A stretch of 24,442 nt of DNA from a virus. The stretch is from the UHGV virus genome UHGV-1686243, one strand, 5' to 3'. Each line of letters starts with the position of its first letter. Within the stretch, counting starts at the first letter, position 1. The position numbers and the translations under genes were made by a program. This document shows positions 10,160-23,581 of this stretch, one piece after another. Below the pieces are notes generated by a model. It searched no databases, was not told the origin of the DNA, and was given only the letters and a program-made list of their open reading frames with translations.

Positions 10160-10177
10160 TCGCCTTGTTAAGTTAAA

Positions 10178-10187
10178 TTTCTAACAT
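10178..10187 (-). promoter_or_regulatory. GTTAGAAA motif copy (minus-strand orientation), adjacent to 7-bp inverted repeat AGTGTAT/ATACACT
   Basis: Plus-strand TTTCTAACAT is the reverse complement of ATGTTAGAAA. It lies in the intergenic region after the protease/scaffold-like gene. Confidence 0.3.
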
Positions 10188-10270
10188 AGTGTATTTATAT
10201 ACACTGTTGATCCTGGTGGATGGGATCGAGTAGGATCGCGGTCACTGCTCCGGTAGCGACTGCCAAAAAA

Positions 10271-10297
10271 GCAAAAGCCGCTGAGAAGCGGCTTTTT
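10271..10297 (+). terminator. intrinsic terminator (bidirectional-looking)
   Basis: GC-rich stem AAAGCCGCT-gaga-AGCGGCTTT is followed by a T5 run and preceded by an A-run. Confidence 0.6.
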
Positions 10298-10300
10298 GGG

Positions 10301-10330
10301 TGTATAAATCCACTGCCATAGATTTATACG
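10301..10330 (+). promoter_or_regulatory. operator-like perfect inverted repeat GTATAAATC-N10-GATTTATAC upstream of the HTH gene
   Basis: 9-bp arms are perfectly complementary, 30 bp before GTG 10360. Related half-sites (GTATTTATA / TATACACT) occur at 10190-10200. Confidence 0.35.
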
Positions 10331-10359
10331 GTAGATAGATTTTTTCACGGAACTATCTG

Positions 10360-11322
10360 GTGAGTATTTTAAATTCAGTTTCAGTAACTTTCAACACTTC
10401 TGAGTATAAAAACAACACTGAATACCACAAAAAAATCAAAGGTCATCAGTTGAGTTTTTTTGCTCGTCATAGCGGTCTTCTTTCCCCTTCACATAGCGCC
10501 ATTATTGCCGAGTTCGCCAACCTGGCAGGGTCTACCGATGAATACATGATCCGTCGCTCATATGCTGATATGTCCGAGATTACAGGACGCAGTATTTCTA
10601 CTGTGCGCCGGGCATTTGCTGAAGCGACGAAGTGCGGAATGCTTGTTAAGCAACATCAGGTAGCGAATAACAATGCCCAGGTGTGTAACGTATATCGGTT
10701 TACGACACAATTTCTCCACTTCATTCATGTAGCAATGGAGATAGGGGGTAAGCAGGGCATCAAATTTGCCAACGCCACAAAACTGGTTAAGCAGTTGATT
10801 TCAAAGGTTCGTTATTTTTTTGAAACTGGGACCCCCCTGTTCAAATTGAACAAGTCCCCCCATGTTCAAAATGAACAGCCAATAGAAAATAAGAGTCACT
10901 CTATAGCCAAAAGAAGAGAAAGATCATGCGCGGTTCAGCCAAAGGCTTCACCAGCAGATAGTTCTCAAACGGATAACGTGGTACTGGATAAAAAACCAGT
11001 AACCAGGGAAGAACATACCAACCACTGCCTGGCGGCGGCAAAAGCGAGAGCTGCAAAGCGTCGTTCAGACGAGGGGCACGCAAAACGGCAGGCTCTGTAT
11101 CGTACCGCTGAAAAGCTGGCAAAAAAATTTGCATGGATACGTAGTGCCGCTACCGCAGTGAATAAGCCTAAACAATCCAGTGCCTTGGATTTCTCAATGG
11201 ATTATTCTGGCTCCCAGGGGTGTGCAACCATTGGTGAAGCCTTTGACCTGATGAAACAGCGTGGCTATCGGTCTGAATTTGACCGTGAGGATTGGTCAAT
11301 CCCGGCTGGCTTTAGGGGATGA
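10360..11322 (+). CDS. winged-helix DNA-binding protein, possible replication initiator (RepL-like?) or early regulator
   Basis: GTG start with weak RBS; the start is uncertain. HTH-like segment ADMSEITGRSISTVRRAFAEATKCGMLVK; basic C-terminal half. Internal palindromic repeats are listed in the findings. Confidence 0.4.
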   Translation: MSILNSVSVTFNTSEYKNNTEYHKKIKGHQLSFFARHSGLLSPSHSAIIAEFANLAGSTDEYMIRRSYADMSEITGRSISTVRRAFAEATKCGMLVKQHQVANNNAQVCNVYRFTTQFLHFIHVAMEIGGKQGIKFANATKLVKQLISKVRYFFETGTPLFKLNKSPHVQNEQPIENKSHSIAKRRERSCAVQPKASPADSSQTDNVVLDKKPVTREEHTNHCLAAAKARAAKRRSDEGHAKRQALYRTAEKLAKKFAWIRSAATAVNKPKQSSALDFSMDYSGSQGCATIGEAFDLMKQRGYRSEFDREDWSIPAGFRG

Positions 11323-11375
11323 CCTGTGCGTCTACAAAACATCCCAATGATCGGAAAATGCTCTCTCAATAATTT

Positions 11376-11386
11376 GTGTTAGAAAA
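11376..11386 (+). promoter_or_regulatory. GTGTTAGAAAA motif copy, preceded by ATGCTCTCTCAATAATTT
   Basis: Exact motif in the intergenic leader upstream of the small ORF / antirepressor operon, followed by TTAATTT. Confidence 0.35.
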
Positions 11387-11736
11387 TTAATTTGCTGTTT
11401 CTAAATCGGAATGTATGATCTGCATCATCGACTGAAATCATCCATTGCTGAAATTTTTAGTTGATCTTCCATGTTTTCAGGCTTATATTCATGTCGTCGT
11501 AGCAAATTCTGCGACCGGGTTTAGCAGCCTGAATACGAATGCGGACAACCGCAGATATCCGATATTGCGGTATTTTTGTGTCCGTAAAACCACGTTACGC
11601 CCGAATTATGGTGGGGCGTGATGGGGAGGCTTCGGCCTGCTGGTTTCATTCGTGCCAGTCTGCTAACCCCGTCACGTCCTGCCACCCGTTTAGCAGCGGG
11701 GCGCAGGTTGTTAAACCTACGAATGAGGCCGTAACT

Positions 11737-23570: not shown

Positions 23571-23581
23571 GTGTTAGAAAT
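23571..23581 (+). promoter_or_regulatory. GTGTTAGAAAT motif copy
   Basis: Match immediately after the stop of the 407-aa gene. Confidence 0.3.

Follow-up and report, generated by a model that had tools for sequence, protein, structure and literature searches.

The window analysed here is a stretch of 24,442 nucleotides (nt) of virus DNA (UHGV virus genome UHGV-1686243). It carries repL, the gene for a lytic replication initiator, at 10360-11322 on the plus strand, and within repL lie two palindromic boxes followed by an A-rich tract. We consider it likely that the lytic origin (oriL) of a D6-type phage-plasmid has its core at positions 10832-10928, in the part of the gene that encodes a predicted linker of the RepL protein, with the boxes as candidate RepL-bound sites. 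Sequence comparison establishes the homology of the gene, a positional match of the module to the minimal oriL fragment of phage P1 and, at the level of DNA, purifying selection on the box half-sites and the tract; in addition, the boxes are unique in the genome and their sequences are clade-specific. An embedded origin with candidate initiator sites, as in P1, had been proposed in a first-pass annotation of the window, and homology, published P1 experiments and comparative evidence all support that proposal. The boxes are the best candidates yet for RepL binding sites.

The 320 amino acid (aa) product of repL, which has a GTG start codon, belongs to the Phage_P1_RepL family (PF26868). Its counterpart in Escherichia phage D6 is orf20, which is 98% identical and annotated as 'lytic replication protein, similar to P1 repL'. 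The RepL proteins of P1 and P7 are 27–29% identical to it over 92% of the query (tblastn; E values mostly 1e-16 to 6e-18), PF26868 is carried by a cluster representative 97% identical to the window protein, and the window and P1 proteins have in common a C-terminal W-x-IP-x-GFRG end that is invariant in the alignment. What the first-pass annotation called a helix-turn-helix (HTH)/rep-like gene is, by these matches, a RepL homologue. The Pfam set used to scan the window protein did not contain the PF26868 model and returned HTH_36 alone, as a weak match to aa 41–93 (E = 0.0037). NCBIfam held no family match for either the window or the P1 protein, and a scan of genome contigs with the RepL alignment gave 346 pattern matches, none of which was confirmed. 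The family is small, with 33 cluster representatives at E values up to 1e-3 among the 1.84 billion proteins searched. Firmicute plasmid RepL (the Pfam RepL family) gave no match to window RepL at E values up to 0.01, and the name common to the two families is a coincidence of nomenclature. Positions 10200-11500 are 98% identical to D6 and 90–99.5% identical to nearly all of 111 matching plasmids of E. coli, Salmonella and Shigella, which are non-mobilizable with one exception; judging from these identities, the window is a D6-like phage-plasmid of the P1 group.

In the putative origin, the window reads gaCCCCCC-TGTTCA-AAT-TGAACA-agt-CCCCCC-a-TGTTCA-AAA-TGAACA-g. Box 1 at 10838-10852, distal to the A-rich tract, is TGTTCAAATTGAACA (TGTTCA-AAT-TGAACA). 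It is a candidate site for a RepL dimer and encodes aa 160–164 in the predicted disordered linker. Box 2 at 10863-10877, proximal to the tract, is TGTTCAAAATGAACA (TGTTCA-AAA-TGAACA) and is the positional homologue of the P1 box present in the minimal T5 oriL fragment (discussed below). Both are perfect 6+3+6 dyads with a start-to-start distance of 25 bp, which confirms the TGTTCA/TGAACA palindromes of the first-pass annotation and their coordinates. Other parts of that description need qualification. Each box was said to follow a run of six C residues: the run at 10832-10837, a G+C 'clamp', directly precedes box 1, and box 2 follows a C6 run (10856-10861) plus one A (together 10856-10862). 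The surrounding stretch was called AT-rich, which is correct for the flanks (65–66% A+T in 10806-10831 and 10878-10926) and not for the boxes themselves (54%). The duplicated peptide that the boxes were said to encode (PLFKLNK / PHVQNEQ) does not hold up. Because 25 bp is not a multiple of three, the D6-clade boxes are read in different frames, as ctg ttc aaa ttg aac (LFKLN) and cat gtt caa aat gaa cag (HVQNEQ); the two peptides are unrelated, and the repeat is therefore kept as DNA.

The boxes and their C-runs together form a 21-nt direct repeat with 90% identity (repeat family D1). With up to 1 mismatch allowed, TGTTCANNNTGAACA occurs twice in the window versus 0.10 expected, and none of 100 shuffles reached two occurrences. 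These two are also the only perfect copies of the box in the D6 genome (91,159 bp, put together from four pieces for this count). Among the 2.9 million contigs of IMG/VR, the double-box pattern is found in exactly 23; all of these are D6-clade repL contigs that were also retrieved independently through the protein.

Directly after box 2 comes the A-rich, purine-rich tract (10878-10928, plus strand), the homologue of the P1 AT2 region and a candidate DNA-unwinding element. It starts with CAATAGAAAATAAGAGTCAC (P1 counterpart: CAATAAAGAATAAGAAGTCAC) and ends in the conserved AAAGATCATGC, with GATC at 10922-10925. The tract has an A+T content of 65–66% and is 51% A and 68–69% purine on the coding strand. 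Within repL, only one 50-mer is less stable than that at 10879-10928, and in terms of helix instability the tract is at the window's 98th percentile. On the other side of the boxes, approximately 40 bp upstream of box 1, AATCAACTGCTTA (10788-10800, minus strand) is a weak match to the integration host factor (IHF) consensus and at most an optional part of the module; the predicted IHF site (AT1) of P1 lies on the equivalent side. We found no DnaA boxes with up to 1 mismatch in 10200-11500 and no convincing oriC-type 13-mer there.

The lytic origin of P1 has been placed somewhere within repL since 1989. The P1 gene contains ttatccaca-CCCCCA-TGTCA-AAA-TGATA-CCCCCTCCCCC-TGTCA-GGA-TGACG-tgg followed at once by CAATAAAGAATAAGAAGTCACAAGTTAAAAAAACAAAAAGATC, that is, two boxes (CCCCCA-TGTCAAAATGATA and CCCCC-TGTCAGGATGACG) that are 24 bp apart and lie directly before a 43-bp region. 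In Huan, Brown & Wang 2023 (PMC9948254), this 43-mer is called AT2. Amplification driven by RepL was significantly inhibited there when 11 synonymous changes were made in AT2, which was needed in cis, and the predicted IHF site (AT1) and the DnaA sites were dispensable (PMC9948254). Truncated non-coding fragments were active in trans provided that AT2 was kept (PMC9948254). The smallest active fragment, T5 (~90 bp), has the structure ccccctccccc-TGTCAGGATGACG-tgg-AT2-agtttccggcggtgccgg, and its amplification in trans, with RepL as the sole P1 protein, showed no significant difference from that of a full-length non-coding copy (PMC9948254 and its supplement). T5 contains the proximal box, AT2 and a short flank; the distal box is absent. 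The authors state that P1 oriL's precise sequence and the target of RepL are still unknown, and they noted, but did not test, a C/G-rich sequence before AT2 (PMC9948254). We found no description of the boxes in the searchable literature. The best nucleotide-level match between the two genes pairs window 10833-10926 with nt 451–540 of P1 repL, and all other matches have E values >1.

DNA for the comparison of repL genes came from 80 IMG/VR loci and from contigs encoding more distant homologues. The module occupies the same position in each clade, approximately 45–50 codons past a conserved N-x-Y-x-F motif. In an automatic census, two TCA-N3-TGA cores were present in the linker-coding region of 89 of the 89 repL loci parsed, with a core spacing of 24 or 25 bp in 88; at the remaining locus (L089) the census took a spurious core, and direct reading gives box 2 as TGATCA-TTC-CGATCG at +24. 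Five further loci were read by eye. All clades read as DNA have a 45–55-nt A-rich tract within 0–3 nt after the proximal box. The outer bases of the half-sites vary by clade (TGTTCA, TGATCA, TGCTCA and TGTCA). D6-clade boxes are TGTTCA-N3-TGAACA at both positions, 25 bp apart, and all other spacings are 24 bp. P1-clade boxes are TGTCA-AAA-TGATA (distal) and TGTCA-GGA-TGACG (proximal), and in a P1-like Enterobacter clade (L094–L096) the distal box is degenerate and the proximal box is TGTCA-AAA-TGACA. In an Enterobacter/Klebsiella/Raoultella clade with D6-type gene order (L026, L083–L087 and L089) both boxes are TGATCA-N3-TGATCR, and in L088 both are TGCTCA-TGG-TGAACA. The C-run before box 1 is C5–C6 in the whole D6 clade and C5–C7 in P1-type clades, and it is replaced in the Enterobacter/Klebsiella/Raoultella clade by CGGTC, which precedes each box; the C6 run before box 2 is invariant in the D6 clade, with the A that follows it changed to G in L025.

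Seven more distant members were inspected as protein only. In four of these, P-x-Q-[NS]-[DE] occurs twice, 8 codons apart, and two others have a degenerate first copy. Read from the protein alone, this motif would be the translation of nnT-CAR-AAY/AGY-GAN, i.e. TCA-N3-TGA.

Several loci depart from the common arrangement. An Enterobacter P1-like repL (L097, 1465-1500) has one box, by way of a clean 24-bp in-frame loss, and in a RepL gene whose product is 84% identical to P1 RepL (L093, 1440-1540) AT2 is shortened, with the last ~12–15 nt, including GATC, missing; either variant would offer a helpful natural test for the parts of the module that are indispensable. The two boxes of the Enterobacter/Klebsiella/Raoultella clade (L026, L083–L087 and L089) include four Dam (GATC) sites, while the D6 and P1 clades have instead one GATC at the end of the A-rich tract (10922-10925 in the window). 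Origin activity in the former clade could respond to methylation state.

Selection on the module is visible at the DNA level in the alignments of two clades. In the D6-clade set (21 unique sequences, including L025 with 65% aa identity), 24 of 24 half-site positions are invariant compared with 588 of 939 positions elsewhere (Fisher p=1.8e-5). Substitutions within the D6-clade boxes are confined to the 3-bp spacers: AAT is replaced by TTT or AAA in box 1, and the AAA of box 2 in the window is TGA in L025. Of the third-codon sites in 10832-10928, 8/32 are variable, compared with 180/289 elsewhere (p=9e-5). The window and L025 share 84.5% nt identity in the module and 69.5% gene-wide, with 81% of third positions identical in the module versus 50%. 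Among the 7 Enterobacter/Klebsiella/Raoultella sequences (mean nt identity 69%), 21/24 half-site columns are invariant versus 329/819 elsewhere (p=5e-6), as are 6/8 third positions in half-sites versus 34/273 (p=1.3e-4). All 6 spacer columns vary in this set (GCA, GGG, CCC, TCG, TGC, TGA and TTC are seen). Invariant half-sites around free spacers have the appearance of the footprint of a dimeric, sequence-specific DNA-binding protein.

An AlphaFold (AF2) model of window RepL, built on a 14-sequence alignment and of medium quality (mean predicted local distance difference test [pLDDT] score of 65), has a confident winged-HTH domain at approximately aa 19–157 (block pLDDT mostly 75–90), a predicted disordered linker at aa 162–216 (pLDDT <50), and a long helix at aa 217–266 followed by a small C-terminal part. 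Foldseek matches in the PDB include the MarR family, TFE, Rpc82, staphylococcal RepA_N (5kbj, 4pql) and DnaD-N (2v79). These are generic winged-helix proteins, mostly MarR-type regulators, all with E values >1e-3, and the model does not allow RepL to be assigned to a specific initiator family; a sequence profile search of the PDB gave only marginal HTH matches (E >0.1). The modelled N-terminal domain is of the winged-helix type that reads dyad sites as a dimer. The boxes encode RepL aa 158–173 and the A-rich tract encodes aa 173–190. According to the model, therefore, the cis elements occupy the disordered linker, where the protein tolerates sequence that is dictated by the DNA. This placement accounts for an origin sitting within an essential gene.

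A mechanism can be proposed on this basis. RepL would be produced from its own promoter after derepression, and RepL dimers would bind the TGTTCA-N3-TGAACA boxes, the centres of which are 25 bp or ~2.4 helical turns apart, through the N-terminal winged-HTH domain. Both the identity of RepL as the box-binding protein and its binding as a dimer are presumed. The bound complex would then destabilize the adjoining A-rich tract (10878-10928), the presumed unwinding element. Finally, the C-terminal part of RepL, transcription through the gene, or both might help to bring in the replicative helicase; in P1, transcription through the gene has been reported to help. Melting of the tract and the manner of helicase recruitment are conjectural as well.

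Several observations weigh against an origin of this kind. The A-rich tract of the window is 65% A+T compared with ~80% in P1, and it is not the least stable segment of its gene. Window repL has no DnaA box, which is relevant only if DnaA is needed (the DnaA boxes of P1 are dispensable; PMC9948254). The GC skew does not change sign at repL; skew is uninformative here because it tracks the uniform gene orientation through the window. The structural matches of RepL are all weak (E >1e-3) and come from a model of medium quality. The distal P1 box is dispensable in the plasmid amplification assay, as T5 lacks it, and a natural single-box variant exists in Enterobacter (L097). Because of T5 and L097, two boxes are not strictly required, and the distal box is more probably stimulatory than essential. 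The proximal box might be dispensable as well, with AT2 itself the target of RepL, as the published constructs keep both together.

It is unlikely, though the least unlikely of the alternatives, that the boxes are an operator through which a MarR-like winged-helix RepL blocks or throttles its own transcription, with initiation dependent on the A-rich tract alone. The predominance of MarR-type regulators among the fold matches is in keeping with autoregulation, as is the name 'MarR family transcriptional regulator' that UniRef gives to one P1 RepL cluster; dimeric repressors typically have dyad sites whose spacer is not contacted, and the P1 constructs that retain AT2 also retain the box. However, wherever the DNA is readable the proximal box lies 0–3 nt from the A-rich tract, which is the arrangement of an initiator site and its unwinding element, and the minimal trans-active P1 fragment keeps the box though it is non-coding, such that no transcription is regulated there. 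Operator and origin roles can also coexist.

Binding of the boxes by a host protein or by a phage protein other than RepL is quite improbable. Such a binder would fit with the co-variation of box type with the whole phage lineage rather than with RepL alone, and the assignment of the boxes to RepL is itself indirect. Yet RepL is the sole phage protein that E. coli needs in order to amplify the 90-bp P1 fragment (Huan et al. 2023, PMC9948254), and a host factor fails to explain clade-specific outer bases among elements that share Enterobacterales hosts. The box pair is found at one genome location, unlike the sites of a dispersed regulator, and the sequence of the box departs from the LexA (CTGT-N8-ACAG), CRP and DnaA consensus; a LexA, CRP or FNR identity is rejected from spacing and sequence as read directly.

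We regard it as very improbable that the palindromes act as hairpins, whether on the repL mRNA (where they might cause pausing, affect processing or exert translational control) or on single-stranded DNA exposed by unwinding (as a priming or loading signal). Although 10826-10930 folds better than shuffled sequences (z=-2.8 as RNA and z=-4.5 as DNA), a good fold is automatic from two copies of one palindrome. Half-sites do change together between clades (TGTTCA/TGAACA versus TGATCA/TGATCA), but complementarity is lost in L088 (TGCTCA...TGAACA, a C·A mismatch in both boxes), in P1 (TGTCA...TGATA) and in the distal box of L095 and L096 (TGTCA...TGAGC). The stems are invariant within clades rather than co-varying, and the universal part is only the TCA-N3-TGA core, which fits sequence-specific protein contacts.

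The last alternative, that the boxes have no function as DNA and resemble each other through a conserved or duplicated RepL peptide motif (P-x-Q-N-D), is hardly credible: P1 and Enterobacter-type boxes are indeed 24 bp apart, in frame, and encode PPCQND/SPCQDD and RSDQHDQ/RSDHADR, but this idea is already contradicted by the D6 clade, where one DNA repeat is read in two frames as unrelated peptides, and a purely peptide-level explanation is therefore excluded by that frame difference together with the invariant half-sites and free spacers, third-codon positions in half-sites being far more conserved than elsewhere, the spacer-encoded amino acids varying freely in a region predicted to be disordered, and the P1 AT2 change being synonymous and the P1 fragment working as non-coding DNA (PMC9948254).

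Beyond the origin assignment, and with confidence only a little better than even, we propose that the dyad boxes are the recognition sites of RepL, that they and the A-rich tract make up a λ-like linker-origin module present family-wide, and that the outer half-site bases are a specificity code that prevents cross-firing. If this is true, these bases stop P1-like and D6-like phage-plasmids that are co-resident from firing each other's lytic replicons, P1 oriL is located to the base pair, and the family offers a set of naturally orthogonal RepL/oriL pairs, each with ~100 bp of target DNA. Such orthogonal pairs suggest themselves for the copy-number amplifiers already in synthetic-biology use. 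The comparison turns the remark on a C/G-rich sequence in P1 into defined, conserved dyad boxes, and makes RepL binding and origin specificity directly testable with predicted roles: half-sites matter, spacers do not, and outer bases set specificity. It also provides a simple DNA signature by which lytic origins can be annotated in P1/D6-type phage-plasmids; these phage-plasmids commonly carry resistance genes in E. coli and Salmonella.

The gene order in D6 and the window runs from portal (prt) through head protease (pro), the terminator and repL to the c4 antisense RNA and its a1b1 targets, and then to icd and ant. There is no kilA at the repL locus, in contrast to P1. Rather than belonging to a kilA-repL operon under the C1-controlled P53/Op53, window repL comes after pro and a terminator, and the region upstream of it is its own and includes a unique palindrome; the missing kilA/P53 arrangement is a matter of regulatory context and not of the origin itself. 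Directly 3' of repL, Rfam identifies an a1b1 target element at 11483-11535 (52 bits) and a C4 antisense RNA at 11604-11689 (72 bits), and icd- and ant-like genes come after the C4 RNA. Window repL is thus located upstream of an immI-type operon, while P1 repL is downstream of an immI-type operon and behind kilA.

At the extreme C-terminus of RepL, W-x-I-P-x-G-F-R-G (aa 312–320, window 11293-11319) is invariant or nearly so in all aligned clades, and some of the distant members retain a variant of it (PHGFRG, PEGWRG, PKGFRT or PDGFRG). This short end may serve for the docking of a host replication protein.

Upstream of the gene, a bidirectional intrinsic terminator at 10273-10296 separates pro from the repL unit, and of the other clades that have the D6-type gene order, most possess an equivalent hairpin. 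The terminator is part of a conserved non-coding block that is located in the interval from the pro stop to repL (10176-10300), is found in every RepL clade with D6-type gene order, and consists of TTTCTAACA (10178-10186), ACACTGTTGATC (10201-10212) and GTAGGATCGCGG (10230-10241), followed by the terminator in most clades. The block looks like a short transcription unit (possibly a small RNA) or a leader/attenuator before repL; Rfam gave nothing above noise on the pro-repL spacer. The palindrome ATAAATC-N10-GATTTAT (10304-10327) has its end 32 bp upstream of the start of repL. Across the D6 clade, including L025, the arms do not change but the N10 does, and the 91-kb D6 genome contains no other copy. 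This palindrome, which lies outside the origin core, is a candidate operator for the promoter of repL; as a single copy, it is ruled out as a dispersed C1 operator. A second copy of AATCCAsTGCCwTrGATTT within the gene (11174-11192) is ruled out as a second operator, as it is not conserved in L025.

Two further repeats were noted. Within repL, CAAAGGCTTCACCA / TGGTGAAGCCTTTG (10940-10953/11232-11245) form a 14-nt perfect inverted repeat with arms 278 nt apart, where none is expected by chance. Its arms are broken without compensation in L018, L020, L023 and L025, which rules it out as a conserved element, and it is probably fortuitous. By eye, the motif GTGTTAGAAA / TTTCTAA(C/A)A recurs in A+T-rich intergenic spots at 10178-10186, 11376-11385, 11398-11405 and 23571-23580. 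The motif is similar to the TCTAA core of the C1 operator in P1, and these spots may be D6-type C1 operators.

The module can be compared with three kinds of known origin. Iteron plasmid origins (Rep_3/RepA, π and TrfA, with 17–22-bp direct iterons and DnaA boxes) likewise have repeated initiator sites with a phasing of about two turns, next to an A+T-rich region, and a winged-helix-type initiator. Their iterons are asymmetric and read by monomers, in contrast to the palindromes of the window, which are presumably read by dimers; the window sites are also intragenic and without a DnaA box. The Pfam scan of window RepL gave no match to the Rep_3 domain, and D6 has a separate pfam01051 RepA-like plasmid replicon elsewhere (orf42).

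Phage λ is closer in outline. Its origin, oriλ, lies within gene O, in the part between the DNA-binding and P-binding domains, and consists of four iterons, each with an 18-bp inverted repeat to which an O dimer binds, followed by a 39-bp region of high A+T content (PMC6022878). The window module, too, places dyad repeats beside an A+T-rich tract in the part of the initiator gene that encodes the predicted linker. The differences are that λ has four 18-bp iterons and the window two 15-bp boxes, with a single box in one natural relative; that no Phage_rep_O match was obtained in the Pfam scan of window RepL; and that no P-like helicase loader is found next to window repL, the neighbours of which are pro and the c4-icd-ant operon. 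The likeness to λ, by analogy, is one of working principle and not of family membership.

The P1 lytic replicon is the nearest system: its initiator is homologous (PF26868), and the gene has, at the equivalent position, two dyad boxes that each follow a C-run, then an A-rich tract ending in AAAGATC. Half-sites in the window are 6 bp (TGTTCA) and perfect, whereas those of P1 are 5 bp (TGTCA) and imperfect; the window spacing is 25 bp and out of frame, and that of P1 is 24 bp. DnaA boxes are annotated in P1 and the window has none, with one IHF-consensus match, and a TTCCGG-N-CCGGAA palindrome downstream in P1 is absent from the window. The window has neither kilA nor an annotated C1 operator/P53, and its repL is situated between pro with the terminator and the c4-icd-ant immunity operon. 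The window element is the D6-type version of P1 oriL, and as such of a known kind; what the comparison adds is the presence of the boxes, with clade-specific sequences, in every RepL clade read as DNA.

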